A program made the translations under genes and the position numbers. Shown piece by piece: positions 1-40,647 of a DNA stretch of 50,485 bases (its first letter is position 1; every line of letters starts with the position of its first letter). Below the pieces are notes generated by a model. That model was not told the DNA's origin. It saw only the letters and a program-made list of their open reading frames with translations, and did not search any database. Location of the stretch: positions 1 to 50,485 of the IMG/VR virus record IMGVR_UViG_3300023284_000253. The stretch is one strand, 5' to 3'. The DNA comes from a virus.

Positions 1-144
1 CACAAACAAATACGATTTACCCCCACATATAATTGATATGTTAAATCTGTCTGAGCGTCCAGAAGAGGGGGTGATTCGTATAACGTCATTGATCGATAGC
101 CCTTTGATCCGACGGCTGATGATTGACAAGTGGGACCAGATCAC
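1..144. repeat. Terminal direct repeat, left copy
   Basis: Bases 1-144 (cacaaacaaatacgattta...gggaccagatcac) recur exactly at 50342-50485; unit length 50341 bp. Confidence 0.9.
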
Positions 145-937
145 GGAGGATTATTCTGACCTATTGCCCGCAGCGGCAGGAACTATCTTTCATGCCTATG
201 CGGAATCAATAGATACACATGAGTTAATGGCCGAGCTAAAGAATATAGTATCTGGAGATCTGAGTAAATCCAGCAGAGAGCTTTTATCAAATCTTCAGCG
301 GGTGTTAAGTGACCATTCGACAGTTATACGGGAACGTCGTTTGTCTGTGGAAATAGATGGCTGGACCGTAACTGGGCAAACAGACCATTATGAACCGAAG
401 ACCGGAGTCATTCGGGATACAAAGTTCACCAAGGTGGGATATCTTAGCTTCAACTATGAGAAACTGACAGCTCAGATGAACTGCTATGCTTATCTGATAG
501 AAACACACGGAGGAAAGGTAACAGAGTTGCACGGGGATCTGTGGTACAAGAATTGGGACTGGAAAATACCTTTGTTTCAGCCGGATCTGGATTATCCCCC
601 TATCTCGTATCAGCCTGTCAAGGTTCCTCTCTGGACAATGGCACAACGAAAACAGTATATCAAGGATAGGCTTCACTATCACACCATGGCAGACAGAGAT
701 ATGTGTTCAGCAGATGAGAGATGGGAAACCCCCTCGACCTTCTCAGTGATGAAGCCTGGGGCATCAAGATCTTTGAGAAACCTAAATACCAGGGTAGAGG
801 CAGAAGCTTGGATCATTGGGAAGAATAAGAAGGGTGTTGAAGTAGTTGAGAGACGTGGAGGGTCTCTACGTTGTTTACATTTCTGTGCCCTGGGAAAATC
901 AGGTATATGCCCCTTTTATAAGGAGAATGTTAAATGA
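2..937 (+). CDS. PD-(D/E)XK nuclease, RecB/Cas4-like; 5' end lies in the terminal repeat
   Basis: Track ORF 38..937. The frame is open to base 2 and, via the repeat, back to GTG 50334 behind GGAGA. Motifs GQTDHY, IRDTKF (DxK), QMNCYAYL (QxxxY); C-terminal Cys cluster CLHFCALGKSGIC. Confidence 0.75.
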   Translation, partial: TNKYDLPPHIIDMLNLSERPEEGVIRITSLIDSPLIRRLMIDKWDQITEDYSDLLPAAAGTIFHAYAESIDTHELMAELKNIVSGDLSKSSRELLSNLQRVLSDHSTVIRERRLSVEIDGWTVTGQTDHYEPKTGVIRDTKFTKVGYLSFNYEKLTAQMNCYAYLIETHGGKVTELHGDLWYKNWDWKIPLFQPDLDYPPISYQPVKVPLWTMAQRKQYIKDRLHYHTMADRDMCSADERWETPSTFSVMKPGASRSLRNLNTRVEAEAWIIGKNKKGVEVVERRGGSLRCLHFCALGKSGICPFYKENVK

Positions 938-1224
938 AAATGCAAGAAGCTATGGATATCTTAAACAACAAGCCAAAAGGATTTATGGTCAGCTTTGAAC
1001 GCATAGAAGGGTGCATGTTGGCGTCAGATCATTTTCCCGATAAACATGCGGGAGAGACGCTGATTGCAACAGAATATGAAGCATGGGAGCTGGCTAGGGC
1101 ATTTGCTCGTGCAACTGAAGGTAAAACTTGTAACCTATACGTCATAGACTCACACTTTGTCCCGGTAGAGGCGTATCATGCCAGGCGTATTCCTAACAGG
1201 GAGGAGAATGTGAGATGTTTGTAA
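934..1224 (+). CDS. hypothetical protein (96 aa)
   Basis: Track ORF. ATGA stop-start overlap with the upstream gene; AAGGAG upstream. Confidence 0.7.
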   Translation: MKMQEAMDILNNKPKGFMVSFERIEGCMLASDHFPDKHAGETLIATEYEAWELARAFARATEGKTCNLYVIDSHFVPVEAYHARRIPNREENVRCL

Positions 1225-1376
1225 CTATATTAACAGAAAACGCTGAATATAAGGATAGTTTTCCCAAAGCATACCTTGATGAAGATAAAGCCATCAGTGT
1301 TGGCAAGAAAAATTTGCGTGAGAATGGTGGAAGTTGGGATAGCTGGGATGTTGTTACTTTAGAAGTAATAGAATAA
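1215..1376 (+). CDS. hypothetical small protein (53 aa)
   Basis: Hand-read ORF MFVTILTENAEY... GGAGAATGTGAG precedes the ATG; overlaps the upstream stop. Confidence 0.45.
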   Translation: MFVTILTENAEYKDSFPKAYLDEDKAISVGKKNLRENGGSWDSWDVVTLEVIE

Positions 1377-1378
1377 CG

Positions 1379-1486
1379 CTGAGAGCTCTTGAGAGGCCGC
1401 TGAAGGGCCTAACCCCTTTAAGGGGTACTAGATAGCCATAAACATAGATGGTGGCTCTAAGGGGCCTTTACGGACCTCAGGAAGGA
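1379..1486 (+). repeat. Intergenic structured repeat, copy A
   Basis: Aligns with copies B, C, D and E. Shared blocks: GAGAGCTCT, hairpin AGGCC-GGCCT, TAGATAGCCATAAACATAGATGG, CGGACCTCAGGAAGGA. Ends 8 nt before ATG 1495. Confidence 0.8.
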
Positions 1487-1494
1487 TGTGAGAT

Positions 1495-1665
1495 ATGAGT
1501 CAGTTCGCAGAGTATCACAATAATCATCCTATTCGGAAGCTGACCCCTAAAGAGGAGTATGAGTTAAGGGAAGCTATTGATGACCTGGATTTTCAGCCCC
1601 CACTTGAATCGATGCTGACCCCTTGGGAACAATATGAACTGGATCAAGAAAGAGGCTTGACATGA
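1495..1665 (+). CDS. hypothetical small protein (56 aa)
   Basis: Hand-read ORF MSQFAEYHNNHP... Its SD (GGAAGGA) is supplied by the 3' end of repeat A. Confidence 0.5.
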   Translation: MSQFAEYHNNHPIRKLTPKEEYELREAIDDLDFQPPLESMLTPWEQYELDQERGLT

Positions 1666-1835
1666 GAAATTGGTGGTGTAAAATGTTTCATTGGAGGTTT
1701 TATGGGCTTCATCTAGGTATGACCCCATGCCCCGACGTGCAGTTTCAGTTCTTGTACTGCGGTAAATGCCAGAAAATGATAGGGCACACAGAACACATGT
1801 TTGGTGCGTTCAAGATGGGTCACAGAGACTGTTGA
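1662..1835 (+). CDS. hypothetical Cys-containing small protein (57 aa)
   Basis: Hand-read ORF MRNWWCKMFHW...CGKCQKM... ATGA overlap with the upstream ORF. Confidence 0.45.
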   Translation: MRNWWCKMFHWRFYGLHLGMTPCPDVQFQFLYCGKCQKMIGHTEHMFGAFKMGHRDC

Positions 1836-1851
1836 CAGAAAGGAATTTGAC

Positions 1852-2001
1852 ATGGTATCTCAAGAAGAACAGGATGCAATAGAAGAATTTAAGAGGATAA
1901 TGAGCCTCCCAGTGACCGAGGACGAGATGATTAGCATAATTTGTAAGGGCTTTCAAATTGAAAACGATAAGGGGCCTGCAAAAGGCTTAGAAAGGACTTG
2001 A
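1852..2001 (+). CDS. hypothetical small protein (49 aa)
   Basis: Internal ATG of track ORF 1801..2001 (the track start is TTG). AAGGA lies 8 nt upstream of ATG 1852. Confidence 0.45.
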   Translation: MVSQEEQDAIEEFKRIMSLPVTEDEMISIICKGFQIENDKGPAKGLERT

Positions 2002-2002
2002 C

Positions 2003-2179
2003 ATGAGCCTAGAAATGAAGTATTTTGTGCTGAAGCCTCAGGGATTGACGGCACATGCTAGGGCATCAAGACACGCTATGTATGCTTATGCCCATGAAAT
2101 AATGGTTGATGATGAGCAATTGGGTGTTGAGTTGCTAAAATGGGTAGAAAAAGAAGAACAGGATGCTGACAATGCATAA
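2003..2179 (+). CDS. hypothetical small protein (58 aa)
   Basis: Hand-read ORF MSLEMKYFVLKPQGLTAHARASRHAMYAYA... Starts 2 nt after the upstream stop. Confidence 0.5.
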   Translation: MSLEMKYFVLKPQGLTAHARASRHAMYAYAHEIMVDDEQLGVELLKWVEKEEQDADNA

Positions 2180-2543
2180 AAGTATTTGGTACGCTACTAA
2201 GGGTAACACCGATTGGATCTTTGAACGACCTGATGTTTATGATGCTTTCATAGATTCCATTCCTGTAGGTGAGAAGCTGAAGATCACAATCCAGAACCCA
2301 CAGGAGGATAAGACACTGCCTCAGTTGCGTAAATACTATGCAGGGCCGGTGAAAGCACTCCAAAGTGTTGGTTATTCTAAGCAAGAAGCTGATGGCATCT
2401 TGAAGAGACAGTTCTTGACAAGAAACAAGGGAGAGAAGGGGGAATACGTAGCGTCAAAGGCAGACTTGACCAAAGATGAACTGCGAGTGTTAATAGACGA
2501 GTCAATAATGTGGTTAACTAGTAATGGCTTATTTGTTGAATGA
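2163..2543 (+). CDS. hypothetical protein (126 aa)
   Basis: Track ORF; alternative start at 2172. No motif I can assign with confidence. Confidence 0.7.
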   Translation: MLTMHKSIWYATKGNTDWIFERPDVYDAFIDSIPVGEKLKITIQNPQEDKTLPQLRKYYAGPVKALQSVGYSKQEADGILKRQFLTRNKGEKGEYVASKADLTKDELRVLIDESIMWLTSNGLFVE

Positions 2544-2555
2544 AAGGGTAAGACA

Positions 2556-2822
2556 ATGTTTGAGATTGTAGAAACGCCAGAAAAAGACACAAAAAGAACA
2601 ATCAATATGAGGGATATGAAACCCTTGCAGGTAGGTAAAATAGTGGGGGATACTATTTATGTGGGTCATATTGTTATGAAAACCCAAATGAATGGCGGCA
2701 CCGAGGTCCTAGACCTGTCACATCCTGAATCGGGTTCTTGGTCTAGGGGTACTCTGACCGTTGAACTACTCCCCCCTGGAGAAGAGGTGCATCTGAGACT
2801 ATTTAATGAGGTGATAGAATGA
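2556..2822 (+). CDS. hypothetical protein (88 aa)
   Basis: Track ORF. AAGGGTAAGACA precedes the ATG; ATGA overlap with the next gene. Confidence 0.7.
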   Translation: MFEIVETPEKDTKRTINMRDMKPLQVGKIVGDTIYVGHIVMKTQMNGGTEVLDLSHPESGSWSRGTLTVELLPPGEEVHLRLFNEVIE

Positions 2823-3265
2823 AAGTGCGTTTAAAGACATTAGATGAGATGTTTCAAGAAGGGCTGACACTAGCAGTAAAGCCAGACCGTGTGACCTGTA
2901 AGAACAAAGAAGGATTTTATAGCGATGATGATTCACAAACTGCACAAAAAACACAAGAGTTCTACGAGACGGAATGTTTAGGAAGCAGTAGCTACTACTC
3001 CGTTTCATGCCCCGGCTCAAGAACTGGGATGTGGGCCAAGTGGGCCTGTGAGGTCAAAGAGGAGGTTGCAGTAGATACTGGCTCAACAAAAGAAGACCTG
3101 ATCGTTGCCCATAGCAATGGTTGGACCACTCGCACCAAAGGCAAAAAGTTATTTGCCACACAGGGTCAAGGTAACGAATTTGAGGTAGCAGCCCCATCAA
3201 GACACATGACACACGAGGAAGTCGAACATGAGTTGGGTTATAAATATGTAATACTACCATTTTAA
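2819..3265 (+). CDS. hypothetical protein (148 aa), C-terminus ...YVILPF
   Basis: Track ORF, tightly packed. Followed by the 19-nt motif ccattttaagaaaggaaca. Confidence 0.7.
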   Translation: MKVRLKTLDEMFQEGLTLAVKPDRVTCKNKEGFYSDDDSQTAQKTQEFYETECLGSSSYYSVSCPGSRTGMWAKWACEVKEEVAVDTGSTKEDLIVAHSNGWTTRTKGKKLFATQGQGNEFEVAAPSRHMTHEEVEHELGYKYVILPF

Positions 3266-3279
3266 GAAAGGAACAAGAC

Positions 3280-3579
3280 ATGTCGCCATACCAACAGAAC
3301 AGGACCAAAGTCAACACAGAGAACATCAATGTATACGGAATAAATAAAGATGGTAGCCGAAAGGAGTTCTACGACACAATTGGGCAAGTATTGACCTTCA
3401 GTGATGGCGAGCGGGTTGTCGTAATTAAATGGCCGAAAGCGTGGGGTATTATTGAGCCTGTGCCGCAGCGGGTACAACAAGGTGGACAACAGCAGCAATA
3501 TGTTCAACCAACCCTACAGCAGGCTCCACCACAACAAGCAGCCCCAGTAGTAGTTCCGCAGGGTGAAATACCGTTTTAA
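3280..3579 (+). CDS. hypothetical protein with Q/P-rich linker and SSB-like C-terminal tip (GEIPF)
   Basis: Track ORF. C-terminal third is QQGGQQQQYVQPTLQQAPPQQAAPVVVPQGEIPF, which resembles the bacterial SSB linker plus IPF tip. The N-terminal fold is not recognisable. Confidence 0.6.
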   Translation: MSPYQQNRTKVNTENINVYGINKDGSRKEFYDTIGQVLTFSDGERVVVIKWPKAWGIIEPVPQRVQQGGQQQQYVQPTLQQAPPQQAAPVVVPQGEIPF

Positions 3580-3703
3580 GAAAGGAACAGAGCTGGTGGC
3601 GTGTTATCACGTGGTCGGTACATCCAAAAACGCAGAATATGAGAGCCGACTCTGGCCCAGCTCATATATCAGGGTCAAGGAGGACCTTTCTTTTGGAGGA
3701 AGC

Positions 3704-4045
3704 ATGGATATTTTATTTTATCTTTTAGCGGGTCACATGTTAGCGGATTTTGCATTGCAGAGTGATGCAATGGCAAAAGGAAAGAACCGGAACAACAAAA
3801 CAATTCCTCCGCCTGGGGCAAAGTACACTCCTTGTTGGGGCTATTGGCTGACAGCTCACAGTGGGGTACATGCATTGATGGTGGCATTGGCTACGGGAAG
3901 CTGGGTACTGGGAGCATGTGAGTGGGTCATACACTGGGTAATTGATTTTCTAAAGTGTGAAAATAAGTTTGGTGTACATGTAGACCAAGCATTACACATA
4001 GGATGCAAGATTACTTGGTTTTTGTTCATTGTCATAGAAACGTAA
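3704..4045 (+). CDS. DUF3307-like integral membrane protein
   Basis: Internal ATG of track ORF 3563..4045, behind GGAGGAAGC. N-terminus MDILFYLLAGHMLADFALQSDAMAKGK fits the H-x-x-A-D-F-x-L-Q signature; several hydrophobic helices. A GTG near 3597 is an alternative start. Confidence 0.6.
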   Translation: MDILFYLLAGHMLADFALQSDAMAKGKNRNNKTIPPPGAKYTPCWGYWLTAHSGVHALMVALATGSWVLGACEWVIHWVIDFLKCENKFGVHVDQALHIGCKITWFLFIVIET

Positions 4046-4233
4046 TGAGAAAACAGAAACACATGCTTAGATACTGCCCGTCATGCGGCACCAAGCATCG
4101 GATAAATGAGTGGGGAAAATACTATGTGGGCTTTACAGTCTACCACACATCCACAGGTTCCAGTCCAGAACCGCTACTAGTTTGTACCCAGTGCAACTAT
4201 ACTTTTGGTATAAAATGGAAGCGTCGGAAATGA
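4045..4233 (+). CDS. zinc-ribbon small protein (62 aa)
   Basis: Internal ATG of track ORF 4003..4233, overlapping the upstream stop. CPSCG...CTQCN pair. Confidence 0.55.
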   Translation: MRKQKHMLRYCPSCGTKHRINEWGKYYVGFTVYHTSTGSSPEPLLVCTQCNYTFGIKWKRRK

Positions 4234-5003
4234 ATTTAGAAATAGTCCATGAAAATGCTGATGAGATCCTGGCCTTTTGCTGCTTCCACAACGACACAGG
4301 CAGGCCAAACATGTTGTTGAACAAATCGGGAGAGTTCGCAGGGAAATATGTCTGCTGGTCCTGCGGTGCCCGGGGAAACATTGCAGATCTTGGGCTGGAG
4401 GTAGACGTCAAGAAAACCAGGCGCAAGAAGAAACAATCTCCGAGAGAGATGCACGGGATATGGGCCGAACTGCCTTACGCAGATGAATGGATCGTGCCCA
4501 CGGAACATCTGAGAGCGTATGGTGTAAAATGGAACAAGGAAGAACAATGTTGGGTATGCCCCATGCTGAACCCTAAAAGTCAGATATGTGGGCTTCAGCG
4601 ACGGTTCAAGAATGGCAGGAAGATATGTGTCAGTGGGTCCAAGTTGGGAGTGTTCACCACGTCAGCCCCCTGGCAGGAAAAATTAGTAATATGCGAGGGT
4701 TATTCGGATACTGATGCAGCAGCCACACTAGGATTCTGGTCCATTGGACGCCCCTGTGCCGCTGTATATAAACCAGTGGTGGATTGGATCTGGGCACACG
4801 GTGCGAACAACAATAGGATTGTGATTATATCAGACGGGAATGAAGTAGAACGAGCAGCAGCCGTGGAGCTATCTGATCGAATAAGACTAGGCCATCGCCA
4901 CGTTAGAGTTGAGTACCCAACCCACAAGGACTTATCTGAGGACATTGCAGCAGGTCTAGGAGATCAATGGATAGAAAGGATACAAAATGGGACTAGGATC
5001 TAA
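4230..5003 (+). CDS. DNA primase (CHC2 zinc finger + TOPRIM)
   Basis: Within track ORF 4110..5003; ATGA overlap start at 4230 (alternative 4215). CHC2 finger CFHNDTGRPN...YVCWSCGARGN; TOPRIM motifs LVICEGYSD and VIISDGNE. Confidence 0.8.
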   Translation: MNLEIVHENADEILAFCCFHNDTGRPNMLLNKSGEFAGKYVCWSCGARGNIADLGLEVDVKKTRRKKKQSPREMHGIWAELPYADEWIVPTEHLRAYGVKWNKEEQCWVCPMLNPKSQICGLQRRFKNGRKICVSGSKLGVFTTSAPWQEKLVICEGYSDTDAAATLGFWSIGRPCAAVYKPVVDWIWAHGANNNRIVIISDGNEVERAAAVELSDRIRLGHRHVRVEYPTHKDLSEDIAAGLGDQWIERIQNGTRI

Positions 5004-5181
5004 CAGAATTCCAAAGAGCAACCGATCAATGGCCATCACAGCATATCTGAGCAATATCGATGTCTTGGATCACACAGAATATGTTTGCAGTTTAGAGCCA
5101 GATCGTCCAGCAAGATATAAAATGCTGTCAATATTTGTGAACACCTTCAAAAAAGGTGGATCAGACATGGTCTTGGCGTGA
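4987..5181 (+). CDS. hypothetical protein (64 aa)
   Basis: Track ORF. AAAGGA lies 7 nt upstream of the ATG; overlaps the primase 3' end. Confidence 0.55.
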   Translation: MGLGSNRIPKSNRSMAITAYLSNIDVLDHTEYVCSLEPDRPARYKMLSIFVNTFKKGGSDMVLA

Positions 5182-5285
5182 GAGGCTCTCACAGCCTGCT
5201 GGAGCGACGATCTCTTCTAAGGGCCACTAGACAGCCATTAAAAGAGATGGGGCCTTGTACACCCCTTCACGGGCCTCAGGAAGGA
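5180..5285 (+). repeat. Intergenic structured repeat, copy B
   Basis: Hairpins AGGCT-AGCCT and ATCTCTT-AAGAGAT. The 27-mer ctcacagcctgctggagcgacgatctc (5188-5214) is identical to 34448-34474. 3' block CGGGCCTCAGGAAGGA lies just before ATG 5290. Confidence 0.85.
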
Positions 5286-5289
5286 AACT

Positions 5290-5412
5290 ATGACTAGGAA
5301 ACAACAGGCAGCAGAAATCAGGAGGTTGAGGAAGGTATACTTCAACTCTCAGCATCCCAGCATGTGCAATTATTTGGTGAGACAAACGACAGAAAGGAGA
5401 AAGAAGAGATGA
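5290..5412 (+). CDS. hypothetical basic micro-protein (40 aa)
   Basis: Hand-read ORF MTRKQQAAEIRRLRKVYF... SD supplied by repeat B; ATGA overlap with the RNA ligase start. Confidence 0.35.
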   Translation: MTRKQQAAEIRRLRKVYFNSQHPSMCNYLVRQTTERRKKR

Positions 5413-6518
5413 GCAAAGCAATCATTGTAACACTGGACAACGTAAGACCACATCCCAATGCAGATAGACTGAAGCTGGCCACAGTACTAGGGCAACAGAT
5501 AGTGGTGGGTCTAGAGGCCTACGAAGGGCAGGTGATGGTGTTCTTTGACTCCTCCCTGAGGATTGATCACCGCCTTCTGAGAGACAACAACCTTTATGCC
5601 AAGGCAGAGCTTAACAAAGACCCAACTGTGAAGGGTTACTTCTCCAGTAATGGGAAGGTGAAGTGTCAGAACTTCAGAGGAGAACCATCAGAGGGGTTTG
5701 TGATGGGTCTATTATCTGTAGGGGTGTGTTACCCAGCGGTGGGTCATGAGTTTGATAGCGTGGACGGACAGCCCGTGTGCAGCAAAGCCGTGCTGGATGT
5801 AAAACTATTTAAGCCTGGAACGGCCTTCAAGAACTTCCCCAAGCATTGGGACACCAAGCAACTGATGAGAGAAGGTCTGCCAGACAACACTGAGTGCTGG
5901 GTGGAAGAAAAGGTTCATGGAACCAGTGCAAGAGTGGCCAAGATTAAGAACGAAAAGAAATGGTGGCAATTCTGGAAGCCAGATTGGGTTGTGGTCAGCG
6001 GTACTAGACGAAAGGACAACCTCTTGGGGCATATACCGCTTGTTCGTCAAGCTCTAGAAAACCAAGTAAAGGATCAACTGAAGTGTGGGGAACAGATATA
6101 TGTGGAGATCTATGGGTTTGGTGGCGGTATTGCGCAGAACAAAGAAATACAGCCAGGGTTCCATTATGACTGTAAGCCAGGAGAATTTAAGTTCCTGCTT
6201 TACAGAGTAACAATGACTGGACATAATTGGTGGGTAGAGCTTCCCAGGAAAGAGGTTTACAGGAGGGCCGAAGAACTTGGGTTGGTGAAACCACATTTAC
6301 TAGAAATAAACTCATACGATACCCCGGAAACAATCTCAAAATGGTGCAACATAAAACATTCACACTACGACCCCAATACTCTGATGGAAGGTGTATGTGT
6401 ATGGTTCCAGAAGCCTAACCTAGCATGGACCTGCTTGAAGCATAAGTCCCCAGAGTTCCTAGCTCTCACTAGTAAACAGTTTGACAAGGGAGAAGGTGAT
6501 GTAGAAGATGGGCTGTAA
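5409..6518 (+). CDS. ATP-dependent RNA ligase, DraRnl/Rnl2-like
   Basis: Internal ATG of track ORF 5364..6518, behind AAAGGAGAAAG. N-terminal HPNADRLKLATV domain; motif I EEKVHGTSARV (KxxG lysine), IYVEIYG, LKHKSPEF. Confidence 0.75.
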   Translation: MSKAIIVTLDNVRPHPNADRLKLATVLGQQIVVGLEAYEGQVMVFFDSSLRIDHRLLRDNNLYAKAELNKDPTVKGYFSSNGKVKCQNFRGEPSEGFVMGLLSVGVCYPAVGHEFDSVDGQPVCSKAVLDVKLFKPGTAFKNFPKHWDTKQLMREGLPDNTECWVEEKVHGTSARVAKIKNEKKWWQFWKPDWVVVSGTRRKDNLLGHIPLVRQALENQVKDQLKCGEQIYVEIYGFGGGIAQNKEIQPGFHYDCKPGEFKFLLYRVTMTGHNWWVELPRKEVYRRAEELGLVKPHLLEINSYDTPETISKWCNIKHSHYDPNTLMEGVCVWFQKPNLAWTCLKHKSPEFLALTSKQFDKGEGDVEDGL

Positions 6519-6807
6519 GAAACCAAACACCCCTAGATCTCACATTAAGAATTGTCTTCGCCAGCTAGTCTTACGGTCAAGAGAGAGGGCGAGAGCACTT
6601 AAAGCCACGGGATACTGCTGCACCGATTGTGGTATCAAGCAAAGCAAAGCAAAGGGACGAGAGGTGGCCATACAAGTACATCACGATCCCCCGTTAGAAG
6701 ATCAATGGGAAGAAGTGATTGATAGGGTGGTGGAGTTATTAGCGTCCCCACAATATCCATTATGCTGCCCCTGCCATGACTTACGACATGGAATATTACA
6801 CCTATGA
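6508..6807 (+). CDS. HNH-like zinc-binding nuclease domain protein
   Basis: Track ORF. CCTDCG...VHHDPP...CCPCHDLRH pattern (CxxC, HH, CxCH). Confidence 0.55.
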   Translation: MGCKKPNTPRSHIKNCLRQLVLRSRERARALKATGYCCTDCGIKQSKAKGREVAIQVHHDPPLEDQWEEVIDRVVELLASPQYPLCCPCHDLRHGILHL

Positions 6808-7169
6808 ACAAAGCAATCAAAAATAAGATTGAATGCCTGCTAACTAAGATAGGGAAGACGTGTTGCTGTGCGATATGTGGTATGGTTCCTGCTTGTCTGC
6901 ACCATATTCTGCCCAAAAGCACGCATCCACATCTGATTGCACAGCCTCTTAACTTATTACCTTTAGGCAACACGCACCACACACTGAGTGATATCTTAGC
7001 CCCTCACAGCAGTAATTGGAGAGCGAGGATAGCTTTTGACAACTGGCTCACAGAGAATCGACCTGAACAAGCAGCATGGATAGACGAGATGAGAAACGCA
7101 GTCCCGAGTCATGTTGACTGGGAAGCGGAATATCAGAATCTAAAAGACAATCAACACAACATTCATTGA
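6804..7169 (+). CDS. HNH-like nuclease domain protein
   Basis: Track ORF. CAICG...CLHHILPKS...NLLPLGNTHH pattern; ATGA overlap with the upstream gene. Confidence 0.55.
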   Translation: MNKAIKNKIECLLTKIGKTCCCAICGMVPACLHHILPKSTHPHLIAQPLNLLPLGNTHHTLSDILAPHSSNWRARIAFDNWLTENRPEQAAWIDEMRNAVPSHVDWEAEYQNLKDNQHNIH

Positions 7170-7179
7170 AAGGAACATC

Positions 7180-7422
7180 ATGTTAAAACAAGTATCACTA
7201 GCAACATCAGAGGTAGTAACCCTGACAGAAGTAGCAGAGGAAGATCCCATCTTTGCAAAACGAGGCGGGGTCTTGAGGGGCATGGTTGTCCAAGAGTTAT
7301 CGGGTTGGATTTTGAAAACTGGTGGCCTTACTGGAGCCTATGGGTACTACAAAAGTCGTACAGAATGTTTAAAACGCGGGTTAACACTGAACTACAAATT
7401 CTTTGTTGACTCAGCCAATTAA
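7180..7422 (+). CDS. hypothetical protein (80 aa), last gene of the plus arm
   Basis: Track ORF; GAAAGGAACATC precedes the ATG. Confidence 0.65.
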   Translation: MLKQVSLATSEVVTLTEVAEEDPIFAKRGGVLRGMVVQELSGWILKTGGLTGAYGYYKSRTECLKRGLTLNYKFFVDSAN

Positions 7423-7596
7423 GACAATCAGTACGGTGACAGCAGCAGCGATCAAACAAGTGGTCAAGGATACGGTCCACCTCAAATGGCTTGTGAGGTG
7501 TCGGTCAAACGCAGCGCGGAGCCATTTAAGATCTGCTCGAGTGGCGGCAGCATTTGCTTTGATCTCAGCAATGTCTTCAAACAATTGATTTGACAT
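7411..7596 (-). CDS. small tail-anchored membrane protein (holin-like candidate)
   Basis: Track ORF. ATG behind AGGAAAAG. Amphipathic N-terminus plus C-terminal TM helix VSLTTCLIAAAVTVLIVLIG. Preferred over the antisense TTG-start ORF 7403..7588. Confidence 0.55.
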   Translation of the reverse strand: MSNQLFEDIAEIKANAAATRADLKWLRAAFDRHLTSHLRWTVSLTTCLIAAAVTVLIVLIG

Positions 7597-7641
7597 TTTC
7601 TTTTCCTAGGGCCAAGGATGGCCTTTCCTTTTGGAGCAAAT

Positions 7642-7851
7642 ATGACGAAAGTTAAACAACTTGAAAAACTATTTGGTGGTAAATGGAGATACTTAGGACC
7701 AGCTTACTGGGAATGCGATGACGGGAAACATCATGTATGGGCTTTTGGCACTATCAATTGTGACAGGGATGTCTTTCCAGACCTTCTTTATAGCACCGAC
7801 TACCAACTTTTCCGTGATAACAAATTTATGCAGCATGTTTACCTATCCTGA
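7642..7851 (+). CDS. hypothetical protein (69 aa), plus-strand island between minus-strand genes
   Basis: Internal ATG of track ORF 7618..7851 with GGAG 5 nt upstream. Composition is protein-like; no competing minus ORF. 13-nt convergent overlap with the 1052-aa gene. Confidence 0.45.
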   Translation: MTKVKQLEKLFGGKWRYLGPAYWECDDGKHHVWAFGTINCDRDVFPDLLYSTDYQLFRDNKFMQHVYLS

Positions 7852-10800
7852 AACAACAATCTGAGGGCTCTTTTCTTGGCATCCCTGACTCTCTCAGCCA
7901 CCCGTGTTTTCCTGCCAGTTAACCTCTTATTCAGCTCCGCAACCAACAACAGACGAAAAGCTCCAAAGTCCTTGTCATTGAGACGAGTTTTCTGTTGAGT
8001 GCGAGACACAGACAATGCAATCCCGTTCTCAGCCAGCAATGCTTGATTTGCTTGACTAAGCTTACCCGTTACAAATGCTCCATCCTTCCGTTCCCTCTCC
8101 TGCTTCTTGGCAATGAAGTCACTGACCTTCTTAGGTTCCTTCTTTACCTCCTCATCAGCAGCGGCAAATGCCTCTTTGTTCTTCCTTGACAATGACTTCC
8201 TCTGTCTAGGAGTTAGGTCAATGAAATCTTTTCCATGGGCTTCTTGTGCAACCCTGTTCTTTAAGGCTGTTCTCTTTTTGAAAGGACTATCCTTGAAAGT
8301 CTGACCACCTACCGAAAGCATAGAGGCAACACCGGAGGCAGCAATACCGGGTGCTCTTTTGATAACTGCCTGGTACATCTCTTCCAGCGTACCATCTTCC
8401 TCCATCGTGTCATACATTGTCTGCAAAATTTCAGGTGTAATCTTGTCCAAGATAGCTTGATGAGCCTTGATATCATCCCCTATCCAGTCCTTACCTGTTC
8501 GCAACTCATTAAACAATCCAATTAACGGAGCTTCTCTAGAAGTAATATAACGCCCTATTATTTCTCCGGGATTTTTAACGGTTTGACCACCAACCCTGGT
8601 TACCGGAACTTCAGTTCGCTTCTCTCTAAGATTCGAGTAAGCTGCCACAGCCAAACGAGCCATTAGCGTATAAAATGAGGCATCGCCGCCGTGTATATCT
8701 TTGCGATCATTCTCAATTCGCACCTTACCAAAATCAGAAGACAATGGATTAGCTGAATCCCCATCCTCACCAGTGAAATGTTTCCGGACCAGATCACCCA
8801 TGGACCCAATGGCAACCATCTTAGCTACATTGGAGGCCACCATCTCAGCAGCAAAACGACGAGATCCGGGCTTATTCAAAACATTAGCAATCTGTGCTGG
8901 CCGAGAAAAAGTAACCCCCGGAGAAAAAAGCACATATCCAGCCGCCTTCTGAATATTCTGACCTGCTGGGTCTTTAAATCTAAACATCCTCAATGTATTG
9001 TTTATGGCATCCGCACGATCCACTTTAGCCTTTACTAACGCTTTTCCCGTGAAGCCCTGTTTTTGGAGATCCCTCATGGACAGTTCCCAAAGGTCCATCA
9101 TAGTACTATTCATGGACGCAGCAAATGACCTTTCAGACGCCAGAGCCAATTTTCCAATCCCTCTAACCGGCTTCAACAACCTGCGTTTGACAGGTCCAGC
9201 ATCTTGTCCCAATTCAGCCAGCCAGTTATTTATACCCGCACGTCTCCACTCAGCCCGGTCCTTGGAGAACCTACCAGCACTGAGAAAATTAAGACCGCTC
9301 TCTTTTCCATCTGAAAATAGCTCACGTCCCTCTGTCCTTTTATTCAACCTTTCAGCAAAACCTTTACTAGCATAGGCCCCAACACCTCTTCCTACATTTT
9401 TAATAAACACTCCGGGACGGCGGCCTGAAATAGGGGCTGCCTGTCGTCCAATTTGAACATCAAACGTCACAAACAGCTTAGCAGCATCGGCAAGAAAATG
9501 TAGACCCTTGCCTAACGTAAAGGGGGTAGAAGCCACCTTCTTATGAAGCTGAGATGCAACATCTGACCCCAGCACCTTTTCAATATGTGCCCACCCAGAA
9601 TCAGTAGGATTTACCCCTTTTCGCAGAGAACGAAATGCGTCCTGAGCATCACTAGCTTGAAACACTTTTATGTGTTTACCCTTAACCGGGTAGGTCTTCT
9701 TGATGGCACGCTCAATAGTAGCCATCTCCGCCTTGTTCAATGGAAGAGGTTCAAAAGTAACCACTTCCCCAGGCCCTTTAAACCCCTTCTTTACAGCTCC
9801 TAGACCGCCAGCCTCAACAGCAGCAATCCCTCCCGCAGCTTGACGCTTCCTCAGAGCCTTCCTAGAGGCCTCAGCAGCCTCCTGAGAAACCAACTTCACA
9901 CCTTTGGACCAATCCACATACTTCTGTGCCAACTGCGTCAGAGGGGCGTCAGAGCCCTCAGGAAGAACACCTGAGCGTTGAGGTGTAATCTGGACCCTCT
10001 GTCTCCCAGCCTCAGCAGCAATGTCCACACGTCTTTGTTCCCTAAGCTTTCTAACTCCTTTTCCAGCGGCCCCCGCAGCACGTAATCCAACAGGTAACAG
10101 GGCACTAGTTAAAATGTCTTCAGCGCTCCCACCCTCAGCAGCAGTCAATCCTCCAAGAGATACACCTTCAGCAACAGGCTTAGCAACAACACCAGCCGCC
10201 CCTTTCAGAGGGCTCACCAGCTTACCAGCCCCAGCAAGAGCACCAAAAGCCACCAGCCCTCTACCGGGGGCACCTCCTACAGCTTGATTCTGGGCCTCCC
10301 ACAGCACAGCTACAGGTGTAGAAGGGAATGCCTTCCTTAACAGGGCTAACTGAGCAACAAACCCAGACACACCAGCAATGATGTCAGCAGCACGGTCAGT
10401 AATTCCTTCGGCTTCCTGCATCTGAAAAGAGAAATTGGCTTGCTCCGCTTGAACCTGCTTAGCTTGCACTAACAGACTCTCGTGTCTTTGCTTTCGAGTT
10501 ATGGAGGACTCAGCAAGAACAGCAGTCTCTCCCGCATCCACACGCTCCTTGATTGCTTGTAGACGGGGGTCCTCAGCCACCCTCTTAGGTGACAGAAAAG
10601 CTCTCCGTTCTCTGGGAGAGATAGGCCCTTGTTCTGCACGGGAGATAAAATCCTCCACACTCAGATCCAAGAAGGCCCGCATTACTCCTACTTTACGGCC
10701 CCCGGTGAATCGATCAATCTGTGCTTTTACAGGGCCAGCAACCACCGTGTTAAACAACCCCTTAAGCGTTCTACCAACAAACCCCGATCTTTGTGGTTTC

Positions 10801-31805: not shown

Positions 31806-33815
31806 CTACACCCATTGCTTCTCATCTCTAGTTCGTCGGTAGTCAATCATCTCAGCGTCCCTCATCCTCGCAGCAAAGCTTCCCGGATGGATAATCCTAT
31901 ACTCCTCTTCACTTCCCTTGGCCTGCTGAGAGGAAGCCATTTCAGCTAAACCCATAGCAATAACACGATCCCCGTGAGATGCTTTTGCACCACTAGATTC
32001 AGTTATCATAGATACAGGGCCAACATCAATTCGTTTATCAGCAAACGTATACCCTTCCATCTCATTCATAGTCTGATTATCATACAATATCAGCCTGGAA
32101 AACTGAGGATTGTCTCGTAACGATTCACGCAAAGCAGCATCCAGTTTGTTCAACATGGAAATCTTCGTGCCGCTCTGACCCGTTGTATTTTTCCACCCGT
32201 AGGCATTAGCCCATTTTCTAGTACTGTTAGGGGCACCTTCTCGTTTGTACAAAGAATAATAACCAAGCTCATCTAAACGCTCGTAAAACTCTGGAGCCCC
32301 ATTCTCTTCCCAATTAAGTAATGGAGGAACAGAACCACCAATCCAATCACAGAAAGCAACAGTCAACTCTGCAAAACTGGGTCGGGGATGATACGCGGTA
32401 ACTAAAAGCCCAACCAATTCATCAGTGTTTACATCTTTAACAGCACACACAGAATTAGAAGCCCCAGTGCCTCTGGACAAATCAGCTCCCACAGCGTAGC
32501 TATGACCCTGTAAAGGACGACCATATTTTAACTCTCCCCACCAGGATACCAAACTCTTAGATCCCCCCAGAACAAACTCAACGTCGCTGATGGACTTATC
32601 CGACACTACATAGATTATATCCCCGCGATAGCGTGGCTCCTCAACCCTCTCACGCAGCTTGGACATCAAACTAAAATCAAAGAACGTCTCGGTAGAGCCA
32701 GAGTCAAGGCATAGAATGTTCTGTGCCTTGCCGCGCTCAGTGCGTCCTGGTCGTTTCTCGTCCGAGTCTAACCATACCGTCCTGTCTATTCCAAAATTGG
32801 ACACCCCCGCGTCCGCAATAAATGAATACCCACCGCCTAATGTCGAAGTATCAACAACTTCCCCCTCCTCTACATCATCATATACGCCCGGATACGCTTT
32901 TTGAAAATAAGCCAAGTCCTTCATTATCACTTGTCCATCTTTGGGGCTTGAATATCGGCCATAGTTCTGATTCGGGCAGTCGAAGAAACTGAGTTTGATC
33001 GTATTATCTGGATGGGCGGCCATCGCCCTATCATAAGGGTGAGCCCCGCCCCACGGACCTTTAGTCGAATTAAAAATGCAACACTCCGATGTATCGGCTA
33101 AGTTTTCTAGCAGCCACGAGGCCATGGGAGGTTCTATCTGTGCGGCCTCATCAACCATAACCGATGTAGACCGAAATGACTTTCCAAAACCAATATTCGT
33201 CGTGTCACCGCGAACCGCAGAATTGTTGTCAAGACTTTGAATGAATAGCTTCTTTTTGTAAGTCTTGGGCTGCAAATACTCCGGTAGAGTGTTAATCATG
33301 TAGAGGAACTTATAAAACAGTGACTCCTCTGACCCAACTAAAACACCGTCAACAAGTTCACAGCCATCATCAACCAGTTGTTCCTTTCGAGATCCCAATA
33401 AAAACTTGCTGTTGGGACTCACAAGAAAATACAAAAGGTACATTCCTAAGATGATATACGTTGCCCCTTGCTTTCTACTCTTTAGAAAAAACAAATCTGT
33501 TGGCTCCCCATTCATACCTTTGTCAATCGCAACCTTGATTGCCCTGACCGCCTTCTCTTGGTGCGGCCATAAAATGAATGGTATATCTCTGTATCCTGGT
33601 CTGGATTGAGAATTAAAAGTCCACAGTGCCGTGTTAAACCACAAAACAGGATCAACAAAACACAGTGCAAGATATCTTTCCTTGCCCTTATTGCTCGACA
33701 GGAAGCTGTGAAGCTCCTTCCGCCTCATCAAGTTCTTGGCCCTGTTCCCCCGAAACCAATTGGCCAGCGCTTCTGGGCTCTCCGTTATTTTCCGAAAGTA
33801 CCGAGTCGATAGCAT
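31806..33815 (-). CDS. terL: terminase large subunit
   Basis: 669 aa. Walker A-like LKSRKQGATY, Walker B SVMVDEAAQIE, C-terminal nuclease-type GADLSRGTGASNS. The start is uncertain (128-nt overlap with terS; ATG 33731 is an alternative). Confidence 0.8.
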   Translation of the reverse strand: MLSTRYFRKITESPEALANWFRGNRAKNLMRRKELHSFLSSNKGKERYLALCFVDPVLWFNTALWTFNSQSRPGYRDIPFILWPHQEKAVRAIKVAIDKGMNGEPTDLFFLKSRKQGATYIILGMYLLYFLVSPNSKFLLGSRKEQLVDDGCELVDGVLVGSEESLFYKFLYMINTLPEYLQPKTYKKKLFIQSLDNNSAVRGDTTNIGFGKSFRSTSVMVDEAAQIEPPMASWLLENLADTSECCIFNSTKGPWGGAHPYDRAMAAHPDNTIKLSFFDCPNQNYGRYSSPKDGQVIMKDLAYFQKAYPGVYDDVEEGEVVDTSTLGGGYSFIADAGVSNFGIDRTVWLDSDEKRPGRTERGKAQNILCLDSGSTETFFDFSLMSKLRERVEEPRYRGDIIYVVSDKSISDVEFVLGGSKSLVSWWGELKYGRPLQGHSYAVGADLSRGTGASNSVCAVKDVNTDELVGLLVTAYHPRPSFAELTVAFCDWIGGSVPPLLNWEENGAPEFYERLDELGYYSLYKREGAPNSTRKWANAYGWKNTTGQSGTKISMLNKLDAALRESLRDNPQFSRLILYDNQTMNEMEGYTFADKRIDVGPVSMITESSGAKASHGDRVIAMGLAEMASSQQAKGSEEEYRIIHPGSFAARMRDAEMIDYRRTRDEKQWV

Positions 33816-34419
33816 CTACTGTCTCCATGTCAATAATCTCAGCCTCAATAACCTTAGCATATCCACCAGCCAACCGGTCTATTTGCTCCGCAACAGAGGC
33901 AGCATCAAGTTTGTGAGTGTGTGTCGTCTCAACCTTCTTTTCAATATACTGCTTAGAGACCCAGTCGTCGCCTCCCTCCTGCCTGTCAAGACACGACACT
34001 AGAAACATTAGCAATCTATCGTTCGATGGAATAGTTTTATGTGTCTCTTCAACAGTCACTTCCGTCCCTGGAATAAGCTCCAACGAACCATCTTCCAAAA
34101 CTTTCTGCTTAGTAACTATTTTTTTATCAACAGTTACATAACCAGCAGCCGCTCTAATTCCCTTACCAATCAGGTATGCCTTAGTTAATTTTTTACCACT
34201 GTTTGTCGCTCTCTTAAACTCGGGGTACTCACGCTTCCATTTCTGGATATTATCTCGCGTCGTCCCAAAATAAAATGCAAGGTCCTTGAGCGTGGCACCA
34301 GCCGCCACTAATTTCTCAGCAACCCCAACAAGATCGGGACTATACTTTGTAGCATGCTGAGGATTGATTCGTGGTGATCCTTCAGCCTCCCAGTCCTCTT
34401 TAGTCTCCCATCTTACCAT
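33688..34419 (-). CDS. terS: terminase small subunit candidate
   Basis: Track ORF 33688..34491. ATG 34419 behind GGGAGA is preferred because the first 24 codons are read through repeat D. HTH-like LKDLAFYFGTTRDNIQKWKREYPEF; sits upstream of terL. Confidence 0.55.
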   Translation of the reverse strand: MVRWETKEDWEAEGSPRINPQHATKYSPDLVGVAEKLVAAGATLKDLAFYFGTTRDNIQKWKREYPEFKRATNSGKKLTKAYLIGKGIRAAAGYVTVDKKIVTKQKVLEDGSLELIPGTEVTVEETHKTIPSNDRLLMFLVSCLDRQEGGDDWVSKQYIEKKVETTHTHKLDAASVAEQIDRLAGGYAKVIEAEIIDMETVDAIDSVLSENNGEPRSAGQLVSGEQGQELDEAEGASQLPVEQ

Positions 34420-34430
34420 TAAGTCTCCCA

Positions 34431-34542
34431 GCTTCCTCTCACAGCTCCTCACAGCCTGCTGGAGCGACGATCTCCTGAAATGGCTACCCAACTACCCTTA
34501 AAACACTTCGGTCCTCAGAACGGCTCACAGCGGCTCTGAGAG
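34431..34542 (+). repeat. Intergenic structured repeat, copy D (partial)
   Basis: CCTCTCACAG..., then 34448-34474 identical to 5188-5214, then a CGGTCCTCAGAACGG block. Lacks the central TAGCCAT/GAGAT block. Confidence 0.8.
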
Positions 34543-34671
34543 TAAATTCGTGGTTTTATCTGCCGATGCCGTTATAACCGTCATTATCGTTACATACTAC
34601 CTATTAATAAGGTCCACAGTATACTATGGCCCTGTATATCTTAATTCTTTTAACTATGGCACAGCAAAAAC

Positions 34672-34719
34672 AGTGGAAGCAGTTATATTTGCTGACAGAT
34701 ATGTTTCAGCTTCCACTGA
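34672..34719. repeat. Perfect 10-bp inverted repeat (hairpin/cruciform)
   Basis: CAGTGGAAGC (34672-34681) and GCTTCCACTG (34710-34719) with a 28-nt spacer that contains an inner ATAT...ATAT pair. Confidence 0.85.
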
Positions 34720-34907
34720 CTGACTCAATTGTACCAGATTACTATTCTACTGCGCACCATGTACTATAGTCCCCCTATATATATAAGCGGGGTAATTGGG
34801 CTATTTTTAGAACAAATTTTGGAATTTTTGAAAGTTTTTTCATAATCCTTATTTTTGGACTAAAAACAAAGATAAATTTTTATGTGGTTATAATCTAAAA
34901 CAATGTT

Positions 34908-34936
34908 TGCATGTGAGGTTCTCTTGTGTTAGACTT
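34908..34936 (+). promoter_or_regulatory. Candidate sigma70-type early promoter (extended -10)
   Basis: TTGCAT, 17 nt, TAGACT preceded by TGT. The 11-mer TGTGTTAGACT recurs at 43139-43149. Sits in the AT-rich region ~140 nt upstream of the first plus-arm gene. Confidence 0.4.
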
Positions 34937-35076
34937 TATATAATAAGATTTACCATTGATTTTAGTCCAAAACTGGTGATGTTGTATTTATTTTTACAAT
35001 TTAATGATTTTTCGTTTGGCATTTTGTGAATTATCCCGTTTAATATAATAGAGGCGTTATTTTTAAGGAGACAGAA

Positions 35077-35595
35077 ATGTTGACAGAAGCAGAGTTTAAA
35101 ATAGAAATGAATGAAAAATTCCATTTATTGTACGAAGAGCATAACAATAGGTTGAGAAATTGGCTCAAAAGTAAACTAAATGATGATAATGATGTTGATG
35201 ATGTAATGCAAGATGCTTGGCTCAAGATCTGGGAAAGAATTATTAAACTCCCTTTTGGTGAAATGAATACGGCATACCTGTATAGCTGTTTGAAAAGTTG
35301 CCTATATGATTTTTTCCGAAGGCGAGGTGATGGTAAAGACCCCAGTGACCAAAAGTACAAAAAAGGCTTAGGGAAAAGATACAAGCTTCAAATGACAGGC
35401 AACAAGGACTTTCTTCGGAATCTCAAGGGTTACTGGGCCGAGCGTGTCATTCATGGAGACACGTCCCTTTTGAAAACCTGCCGAGAGTTGTTCGGCGAAG
35501 CTGATTCTGCTGGGGTCATGGACCCGACTGGCAGTGAGAAAGATGATTGGGCACTTGCAATCTTAGAAGCAGATGATAAACCTGGAGAGTTGTGA
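35077..35595 (+). CDS. sigma-70 family (ECF-like region 2) protein
   Basis: FHLLYEEHNNRLRNWLKSKL...DVDDVMQDAWLKIWERI...AYLYSCLKSCLYDFFRRR fits the sigma70_r2 pattern. The C-terminal region-4 match is weak. AAGGAGACAGAA precedes the ATG. Confidence 0.65.
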   Translation: MLTEAEFKIEMNEKFHLLYEEHNNRLRNWLKSKLNDDNDVDDVMQDAWLKIWERIIKLPFGEMNTAYLYSCLKSCLYDFFRRRGDGKDPSDQKYKKGLGKRYKLQMTGNKDFLRNLKGYWAERVIHGDTSLLKTCRELFGEADSAGVMDPTGSEKDDWALAILEADDKPGEL

Positions 35596-35900
35596 TGGGT
35601 ATGTACAGAACGTATGATGAACTGTATACTGACACGGTTCACATTGTCAGTAAGTATTTACAGTCGGTGTTAAGTGATCCTGTGTATCGTAAAGAAGTCA
35701 TTGAAGACGTTTACATGAATGTTATTTACCACATGAACCAGCATCCTGATGAAGCAGTGGGCACAGGAATGGTATTACACTTTGTTGATGAGTGTCTTTC
35801 TCAATGGTATTATGATCATGATGAGGAGTTTCAGTCTGGGTATGATCAGTTGATCGAAGATTTCGAGTGGACTAACCCTTATTCAACAGGGGATGCTTAA
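35592..35900 (+). CDS. second sigma-region-2-like small protein (102 aa)
   Basis: YDELYTDTVHIVSKYLQSVLSDPVYRKEVIEDVYMNVIYH resembles region 2 only. Overlaps both neighbours. Assignment is tentative. Confidence 0.4.
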   Translation: MMGMYRTYDELYTDTVHIVSKYLQSVLSDPVYRKEVIEDVYMNVIYHMNQHPDEAVGTGMVLHFVDECLSQWYYDHDEEFQSGYDQLIEDFEWTNPYSTGDA

Positions 35901-37713: not shown

Positions 37714-38096
37714 TGCGTAAACGAACAAAGAAGGACCTACAGGTATTTAAGGATAACTTTGAATATTGGAAGCGTGAATTTGGGCTGACCCAATACTTCA
37801 CACACTTTAGAATGGAAAGATGTTTGGACGATGCTGATGCGGATATTCTGGTAAACGAATGTGGAAAAACTGCTAGAGTTAGATTATCTCCTAGCCAGAG
37901 TATTGGTGGTGATGTGAAAGCAGACTTTGAGGACGGGGGACAGCATGAAGCTGTGCATCTTCTTTTGAGTCGTTTGGTTTGGTTATACGCTAATCTTTCT
38001 AAAGCTGATGGATCTGAGGTTCTTTTGGCTGAGGAAGAGGAAGCTGTGGTTAGGAGAATTCAAACTGCACTTAATAGTCAGAAAGGAACAAAATGA
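37710..38096 (+). CDS. hypothetical protein with HExxH motif
   Basis: Track ORF. GGQHEAVHLLLSRL contains HEAVH. ATGA overlaps at both ends. Confidence 0.6.
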   Translation: MMRKRTKKDLQVFKDNFEYWKREFGLTQYFTHFRMERCLDDADADILVNECGKTARVRLSPSQSIGGDVKADFEDGGQHEAVHLLLSRLVWLYANLSKADGSEVLLAEEEEAVVRRIQTALNSQKGTK

Positions 38097-40117: not shown

Positions 40118-40118
40118 T

Positions 40119-40277: not shown

Positions 40278-40278
40278 T

Positions 40279-40646: not shown

Positions 40647-40647
40647 C

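Follow-up and report, generated by a model that had tools for sequence, protein, structure and literature searches.

The DNA stretch analysed here, IMG/VR virus record IMGVR_UViG_3300023284_000253 (50,485 nucleotides (nt), called the window when its full length is meant), carries five related intergenic repeats of ~115 nt, designated copies A to E, each of which is a long imperfect inverted repeat. The five-copy family is genuine and unannotated, and it belongs to a kind that is already known, that of dispersed intergenic inverted-repeat elements in phage operons. The explanation favoured for these elements, to which a probability of roughly 0.38 is assigned, is that they form a hairpin, in a leader or between cistrons, that is co-transcribed and serves mRNA processing, stability or insulation. 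The features that carry this explanation are a centre that reads in the direction of the following gene, a close fit between stop and start codons, and the persistence of the elements in compact genomes and in relatives with different neighbouring genes.

Copies, positions and anatomy of the repeat family

At the detection level, the family was first grouped by repeat finding, which brought together A, B, C and D, and all five copies were aligned with MAFFT. A profile search of the window yields matches at exactly five places. Profiles built with one copy left out recover every copy over the whole 50 kb, with E-values of 7e-16 for A, 5e-18 for B, 6e-18 for C, 1e-11 for D and, in the case of E, 6e-8 on the minus strand and 1.6e-6 on the plus strand, and no match in the window beyond these five. 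The family of five related intergenic repeats put forward in an earlier reading of the sequence (the original prediction) is thus upheld. The copies are 60-70% identical to each other and are located as follows:

Copy A, positions 1377 to 1490, plus strand: L-type left arm, centre and R-type right arm; covariance-model score 105 bits
Copy B (anchor), positions 5176 to 5289, plus strand: covariance-model score 94.8 bits
Copy C, positions 47324 to 47444, plus strand: covariance-model score 110.6 bits
Copy D, positions 34426 to 34547, minus strand: covariance-model score 96.9 bits on the minus strand versus 18.1 on the plus strand, from a model built with D already in minus orientation
Copy E, positions 42724 to 42846, plus strand as judged from its centre: covariance-model score 91 bits

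Copies A, B and C fit between a stop codon and an ATG as had been proposed, beginning 0-8 nt from the former and ending 5-22 nt before the latter. Copy A lies after TAA 1374-1376 and before ATG 1495, with AGGAAGGA 8 nt upstream of this ATG. In copy B the stop of the upstream open reading frame (ORF), TGA 5179-5181, is inside the element, and AGGAAGGA at 5278-5285 serves as the Shine-Dalgarno (SD) sequence for ATG 5290. Copy C starts 5 nt past TAG 47316-47318 and lies 17-22 nt upstream of ATG 47461. Altogether, a start codon is found within 5-22 nt of four copies, three of which also adjoin a preceding stop. The proposal that the 3' block provides the SD in A and B, with AGGAAGGA 4-8 nt before the ATG, also stands; this purine-rich block acts as SD in those two copies only, and C and D use separate GAGGTG and GGGAGA sequences nearer the ATG. 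Copy E is located within a spacer of 340 nt, where a 31-codon ORF (42612-42707) precedes it and ATG 42896 follows at a distance of about 50 nt. An in-frame TGA is present at the 5' edge of all four intercistronic copies, three in the window (1374-1382, 5176-5181 and 47316-47324) and one, named L1, in the related contig L045 (15541-15546). It is the actual stop (...GCG TGA) in B and L1, and falls one codon past the real TAA or TAG in A (1380-1382) and C. The ORFs downstream of the elements are small and have no PHROG family match.

Every copy matches the family profile on the reverse strand (E about 1e-9 to 1e-13 with the first profile and 1e-5 to 1e-10 with later models), and the element is therefore a long imperfect inverted repeat with hairpin potential in each copy. 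Division of the copies at the inner helix separates a left arm of ~40 nt, an asymmetric centre of ~27 nt and a right arm. Two arm types are distinguished, L (...CTCACAGCCTGYTGG..CGATCTC) and R (AGATSGTGSCTTGTA..CACGGRCCTCAGGAAGG). The arrangement is L-centre-R in copies A, B and C. Both arms of D are of the L type, one of them inverted, and its centre is reversed (L...rc(L), rc being the reverse complement). Both arms of E are of the R type, the left one inverted, and its centre is forward (rc(R)...R), which gives the most regular rod-shaped hairpin among the copies. The ends resemble terminal inverted repeats (TIRs) of ~14-17 bp, CTTCCTCTCAGAGCYCC / GGRGCTCTGAGAGGAAG (CTTCCTCTCAGAGC... / ...GCTCTGAGAGGAAG), found in full in C and D but only in part in A, B and E; those of C, TCCTCTCAGAGGCC ... 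GGGCTCTCAGATGGAAG, are the most complete. The best-conserved sequence is the centre, and the core common to the copies reads ACGATC..AAGGG(G)TA.T..GGGTA....TAA.A..GATCG.

The orientation of the copies and the extent of D had to be corrected, since all five had been described as lying in plus orientation and D as a partial copy. D is full length, its purine-rich 3' end GAGAGGAAGCTGGGAGACTTA running into the ATG of the terminase small-subunit gene (34419), 11 nt away, and when it is left out of the model it scores 39.9 bits on the minus strand and 26.0 on the plus strand. Its centre, AAGGGTAGTTGGGTAGCCAT, reads on the minus strand and matches exactly 15 nt of L2, the second copy of L045, and 13 nt of C. 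The orientation of E is ambiguous, with a centre that reads plus and arms that fit minus better. Because D reads minus toward the terminase gene, 'all plus' fails as a rule and the centre is instead found to follow the direction of the next gene: it is co-oriented with the downstream gene in all seven clear copies, D on the opposite strand included, for which the chance is about 1 in 64 to 1 in 128.

Copies B and D also share an exact stretch of 27 nt (5188-5214 and 34448-34474, respectively), to be compared with about 65% identity elsewhere between copies, which points to exchange between them. In terms of transcripts, the leader of the late operon, which contains D, would be perfectly complementary over these 27 nt to copy B as present in plus-strand mRNA, and the identity either stems from gene conversion or may allow the two RNAs to pair as antisense in trans.

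Proposed hairpins in polycistronic transcripts

The family itself, where its copies lie and how they are oriented, their inverted-repeat anatomy and the accessibility of the ribosome-binding site (RBS) are established; we infer that the elements are transcribed within polycistronic phage mRNAs in the sense direction of the following gene, fold in vivo and have a nuclease or another protein as partner. Each would form an irregular self-contained hairpin, in which two ~40-nt arms, closed by CGAUCU/AGAUCG, surround the asymmetric ~27-nt centre. Placed between cistrons or in a leader, this hairpin would act as an RNase III site does in T7-group phages and contribute to processing, stability or insulation. 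Cleavage in the hairpin, or protection by it, would give the upstream and downstream cistrons separate fates, and the downstream RBS, just past the 3' arm, would be left free.

A function read in the sense direction is favoured by the orientation rule, the tight stop/start fit and the persistence of the elements in compact genomes and in relatives with unrelated neighbours. Neighbouring genes of the window mostly overlap or lie less than 20 nt apart, yet about 570 nt of repeat have been retained. Likewise, the fact that the copies are kept at 60-70% identity and recur in two relatives with unrelated flanking early genes argues for retention by selection. Regarding translation, the predicted unpaired probability downstream of A-D is 0.47-0.75 for the SD and 0.35-0.66 for the AUG, and the background values in 42 other genes are 0.56 and 0.48 (standard deviation 0.17). 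As this predicted accessibility matches the genome background, the hairpin would insulate the RBS rather than sequester it, and an SD-occluding or riboswitch-like leader, one of the roles initially considered for the elements, is rejected.

T7-group phages carry RNase III processing sites (R0.3, R0.5, R1.1 and others), which are mutually similar irregular hairpins between cistrons of long polycistronic transcripts, co-oriented with transcription and leaving the RBS free, and the elements, with their predicted hairpins, resemble them in these respects. A site of this type forms a stable and irregular double-stranded hairpin, which has an internal loop and spans about two helical turns. As judged from ORF positions and with transcription presumed, the intercistronic or leader location in sense orientation fits sites of this type. 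In contrast to the T7 sites, the elements are about twice as long, possess a conserved asymmetric centre and TIR-like ends, include one copy in the leader of an opposite-strand late operon and show no sequence similarity to them, and their cleavage is only proposed.

Evidence for RNA structure was sought in folding energies and in patterns of paired change. Minimum free energy folds are rod-like in A, C and E, and folding z-scores range from +0.3 to -2.9, with a mean of about -1.3 and a combined value of about -3.3. A model of four helices along the rod gives a covariation of 0.263, versus 0.146 +/- 0.03 in shuffles, and 67% of its cells are paired, versus 32-44% when the partners are slid; this covariation is only suggestive, because the helices were chosen from the same alignment and n=7. 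The only helix kept column by column is the inner CGAUCU/AGAUCG, paired in 79% of cells and hardly varying. In the chosen helices G-U cells number 24 and A-C cells 8, and more column-wise helices are found on the sense strand, signs that are weak and confounded by the G-rich composition of the coding strand. A strand call from folding energy was abandoned, both strands being symmetric.

The original prediction had described two hairpins that change in sequence while keeping their pairing, and this holds, in part, for the first of them only. In hairpin 1 a few two-sided changes are seen (C-G in A, U-A in B and G-C in L1), under only one of the two possible alignments of A; a further two-sided change, in the outer stem, distinguishes CUCUCA/UGAGAG of D from CCCUCA/UGAGGG of the copy in another relative, L046. 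In hairpin 2, whose helix in B is ATCTCTT 5210-5216 / AAGAGAT 5242-5248, copies B, C and E have the same AUCU/AGAU core, and one-sided changes lengthen or shorten the helix. Moreover, DNA palindromes or symmetric protein-binding sites would be just as likely to show concerted change in their inverted repeats. The use of this pairing pattern as an argument for a selected structure is undercut by the RNAalifold energy close to zero, by z-scores that are modest and strand-symmetric and by the near invariance of the only conserved helix, and support for a selected RNA structure is consequently weak.

Several of these observations weigh against the favoured explanation. The z-scores of individual copies are modest (-0.3 for B, +0.3 for L1), and sense and antisense strands fold equally well, their z-scores being equal. 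RNAalifold over seven copies returns -0.67 kcal/mol, essentially no consensus structure, and the covariation test is biased upward, its helices having been picked from the same seven-copy alignment. The end palindromes have spacers of 0-1 nt (TGAGAG-G-CTCTCA, CTCT-C-AGAG), cannot fold as RNA hairpins and look like DNA sites. The conserved centre would be dispensable for RNase III and is wholly replaced in L046. Finally, tight gene junctions are not where E, L2 and the L046 copy are found, all three being located in long non-coding spacers.

Known signals and RNA classes were searched for as well. No sigma-70-type promoter was found in D, E or C by consensus scans covering D, E and the whole 34.4-50.5 kb arm, in which C lies, the A and B regions having been read by eye only, so that the promoter role previously considered for the elements finds no support in these scans, although a phage sigma-like gene does exist. 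Scans detected no hairpin-plus-U-tract terminator at D, E or C, and in A-D the 3' arm is followed by purine-rich sequence and not by a T run. As had been stated, the elements correspond to no known RNA family: Rfam, with its hammerhead, twister, pistol, hatchet, HDV-like, Y RNA/YrlA and tRNA-like families included, gives 0 matches for the whole window at gathering score, and only two noise matches of about 10 bits for single copies at permissive thresholds (E<=10 for B and E<=1 for A, C, D and E). ARAGORN reports no tRNA or tmRNA in the window. Other identities were rejected one after another: a tRNA-like fold for its wrong topology and the negative ARAGORN result, a hammerhead core on reading of the sequence, and a selenocysteine insertion sequence (SECIS) on a reading in which TAA comes before TGA in A. 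The same was true of an integron attC site, as the GTTRRRY-like motif lies in the centre and not at the end and the proteins scanned include no integrase, and of GATC clustering or Dam-type control, as the 211 GATC found versus 245 expected are neither depleted nor concentrated.

Relatives of the element and competing explanations

Relatives of the phage were reached via PolA and the large terminase (TerL). The closest one is the Logan contig L045, of which 15.7 kb were examined, with identities of 70% for the portal, 69% for a capsid-region protein, 60% for TerL and 45% for PolA; PolA identity with the relatives that carry elements is only 45-47%. Two diverged copies are present in L045, namely L2 (14735-14858), in a 550-nt spacer upstream of the promoter-like TTGCAC-N17-TATACT, and L1 (15536-15660), which begins at the stop codon of an ORF. 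When left out of the model, they are detected within L045 with E-values of 1e-8 and 5e-5, respectively. The covariance model R1, run over 633 kb of relatives, added one weak match at 12706-12828 of L046 (29.4 bits, E 6e-4), in a 770-nt spacer upstream of the promoter-like repeat TTGCAT-N17-TATACT; this copy has arms like the L type (CAGCCCCTCACAGCCCCTG), and its centre is replaced by unrelated AT-rich sequence. No copies were found by profile or covariance model in 63 JGI loci around TerL relatives (30-57% identity), nor in L044, L047, L114 and L115. 

Apart from the elements, the early regions of L045 and of the window show no similarity at the DNA level, and the small early proteins encoded by L045 are unrelated to those of the window. 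Copies B and L1 are preceded by unrelated ORFs, both of which end in ...GCG TGA inside the element, and the 27 nt that follow them, the first 27 nt of a 40-codon ORF in the case of B, are 81% alike, a match whose E-value is not significant alone but which is collinear with the elements; it is probable from this alignment that B and L1 share a 3' flank. Beyond these relatives, GenBank phages offer nothing close (no match to 20 kb by megablast or to copy C by blastn, and PolA at <=30% identity by tblastn), and the lineage is known from metagenomes only. Exact patterns were equally unproductive: AGCCATWAAMAKAGATSG has 43 single matches in IMG/VR, about the chance number and none confirmed by profile; ACGATCTN{2,4}CCAAGGGGTACT has 0 matches in IMG/VR; and AGCCTGYTGGRSSRWCGATCTC has 3 chance matches inside unrelated sequence in GTDB genomes. 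A RecA-anchored protein search was swamped by bacterial RecA and produced one 2.4-kb relative, which lacks the element.

Only a little less probable than the leader hairpin, and likewise tentative, is the explanation that the elements are recombinogenic or mobile palindromic DNA repeats, either non-autonomous and resembling miniature inverted-repeat transposable elements (MITEs) or junction cassettes resembling the PeSLs of T4-type phages. Such a repeat, spreading or persisting as DNA, would carry a stop codon at the 5' end and, at the 3' end, a purine-rich block that resembles an RBS; homologous exchange at this point would swap the neighbouring small genes, and any RNA effects would be secondary. 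The TIR-like ends of ~14-17 bp speak for this possibility, as do the reshuffling of two arm types among copies and the 27-nt B/D identity, which indicate that copies have exchanged DNA and that the centre has been inverted with respect to the arms. The probably common 3' flank of B and L1 beside unrelated upstream ORFs, the in-frame TGA also at the 5' edge of A and C, the isolated similarity of the two early regions and the small downstream ORFs lacking a PHROG family point the same way. On the other hand, no target-site duplication is seen in the flanks of any of the five copies, the CTG after GGAAG in C and D being part of the element, and roughly 40 scanned proteins include no transposase or integrase. 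Outside the 27 nt shared by B and D the copies are 60-70% identical, and there has therefore been no recent transposition burst. The exact-pattern scans of GTDB genomes and IMG/VR remained at chance level, and a uniform orientation toward the downstream gene would not be expected under random insertion. The recombinogenic-repeat and leader-hairpin explanations are compatible and not mutually exclusive.

Among host-chromosome MITE-like repeats, Correia/NEMIS, ERIC and RUP occur in tens to hundreds of copies with target-site duplications and are transcribed into mRNA hairpins. The elements resemble them in their size of about 100-130 bp, their terminal inverted repeats, their intergenic location and, presumably, a co-transcription in which hairpins affect mRNA fate. 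They differ in being five diverged phage copies without target-site duplication and in having no matches in bacterial genomes with the pattern tried. Of the features that define MITEs, terminal inverted repeats are therefore present and target-site duplications absent. PeSL cassettes have two defining components, a strong sigma-70 promoter and a functional terminator (PMC2839356, PMC4122927). Like them, the elements are dispersed intergenic stem-loops among small ORFan genes, at junctions where neighbours differ between related phages, and recombination between copies is plausible for the elements too, given the 27-nt B/D identity and the B/L1 flanks; unlike them, the elements show neither a promoter nor a terminator motif where scanned, which counts against a PeSL-like identity.

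The nearest described phage feature in layout is the start-associated sequence (SAS) of Cluster K mycobacteriophages. Its 13-bp block (GGGATAGGAGCCC) contains an SD and lies 3-8 nt before start codons, with a function that is not established, and in the extended form (ESAS) it is joined by inverted repeats of 17 bp that are separated by 4-13 bp, each genome having 11-19 copies (PMC3203893). Both groups of repeats are associated mostly with non-structural genes, are oriented with the gene, place an SD block near the start after imperfect inverted repeats and are kept across related phages (PMC3203893). The elements have arms of ~40 nt, a centre of ~27 nt and five copies, play an SD role in A and B only and share no sequence similarity with SAS/ESAS. 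As sequence and dimensions differ, they are not members of that group, and the resemblance is one of layout only.

Unlikely, by comparison with the leader hairpin, is a DNA-level regulatory site whose nested inverted repeats would bind a dimeric phage regulator, or form parts of a promoter together with a phage sigma-like protein, and so time the downstream gene. The 9-13-bp palindromes of the CTCTCAGAG / TGAGAG-G-CTCTCA type and CGATCTC...GAGATCG would suit such a site, and a sigma-70 region-2 protein is the product of the gene that comes first in the early arm. The window contains three exact CTCTNAGAG palindromes, all of them inside elements; with one mismatch allowed, the 9-bp palindrome is found 25 times versus 19.8 expected, no more than chance, which detracts from this argument. 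D stands where the late promoter or operator of the 26-kb structural operon would be expected, E, L2 and the L046 copy are in promoter-bearing spacers, and the spacers of the end palindromes, too short for RNA folding, together with the lack of strand asymmetry in folding, agree with a DNA site. In L045, moreover, an analogous pair of CTTTCAAAGAG boxes precedes a terS-like gene. Against this, no -35/-10-like pair at sensible spacing was detected where scanned, the 5-22 nt between the ends of A, B and C and the respective ATG leave little room for a promoter plus leader, and 115 nt would be very long for an operator. The centre also varies at the would-be -10 (CATAAA, CATTAA, CTATTT, GGTAAG) and is replaced altogether in L046.

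A more composite explanation, and a distinctly improbable one, is that of a self-propagating palindromic junction cassette whose arms would be re-templated from each other and whose centre would flip. It would supply the upstream stop and the downstream RBS region, and a dedicated factor of phage or host origin, binding RNA or DNA, would read its conserved centre (AAGGG-UA-U-GGGUAGCC) in the sense direction. Ranked least likely is that the elements are decaying remnants of old duplications, without present function and tolerated between genes. High divergence between copies, the rearranged arms of D and E, an L046 copy without the conserved centre and the weak thermodynamic and covariation support would all be expected from decay. 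They are countered by the ~570 nt of repeat kept in a compact genome, by recurrence in relatives whose PolA is only 45-47% identical and by the consistency of orientation and end blocks.

Gene context and biological meaning

Because bases 1-144 recur exactly at 50342-50485, as a direct repeat at both window ends, the window represents a complete phage genome of ~50.3 kb; the 144-nt repeat reflects either terminal redundancy or circular assembly overlap. Plus-strand genes occupy 1-7860 and 34550-50485, and the minus strand carries a 26-kb structural operon that begins at 34419 and extends to about 7839. Genes recognised in the window include those for PolA, RecA, RNA ligase, a PD-(D/E)XK nuclease, a DNA methylase and MazG. 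Three further genes adjoin the elements or bear on the explanations discussed above:

Terminase small-subunit gene, positions 33688 to 34419, minus strand: phrog_309, E 8e-15; first gene of the minus-strand structural operon, directly downstream of D
Sigma-70 region-2 protein, positions 35077 to 35595, plus strand: PF04542, E 2e-10; phrog_1740; first gene of the plus-strand early arm
40-codon ORF, positions 5290 to 5412, plus strand: begins 5 nt past B and overlaps the RNA ligase start (ATGA)

Terminase small-subunit homologues are found at the equivalent position in L045 and L044. In L045, two CTTTCAAAGAG boxes bracket a hairpin-rich stretch of ~110 nt (8741-8861) directly upstream of the terS-like gene; it corresponds to D in position but not in sequence, and iteron-like repeats CTAGTGTAC and CCTAATGG follow it. 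The sigma-70 region-2 protein is a candidate trans-acting factor only, for which no link to the repeat elements was found. Its gene is preceded by ~300 nt of AT-rich sequence (34780-35076) that holds TTGCAT-N17-TAGACT (34908-34936), similar to the early-promoter repeats TTGCAT/TTGACA-N17-TATACT of L045 and L046. A TTTTAA(C)TATGGCAC motif lies downstream of both D and E (34640-34662 and 42896-42918; local alignment z 2.5), and TATGGCMC recurs nearby. A longer D/E unit with a promoter was rejected, as the flanks are not significantly similar (z 2.5 and -0.4). A separate start-associated repeat of 18 nt, TAAGGGGGATAAACCATG, comprising SD plus ATG, precedes three plus-strand genes (42408-42425, 43681-43698 and 43955-43972), two of its copies being identical and one 83% identical. 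The large-terminase-like protein (31806-33815, minus strand, 669 aa) has no Pfam match and >100 metagenomic relatives, many of them on contigs of ~50 kb. One of these relatives is binned in a Thorarchaeota metagenome-assembled genome and another in a Deltaproteobacteria one; both are probably mis-binned phage contigs.

The meaning of the family depends on which explanation applies. If the elements were recombination junctions, they would provide a second example, after the T4 PeSLs, of repeats driving the shuffling of small early genes, and unlike PeSLs they would also give their neighbours stop and start signals. A self-propagating junction cassette, if true, would be a previously undescribed phage genetic punctuation linking gene-cassette shuffling with expression control. 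If they are processing or stability hairpins, as favoured here, the elements would offer a handle on operon punctuation in an uncultivated phage lineage with >100 metagenomic relatives, and would constitute a new RNA family for covariance-model libraries. The corrected anatomy, with a reversed D before the terminase gene, two arm types and an orientation rule, makes the question directly testable.

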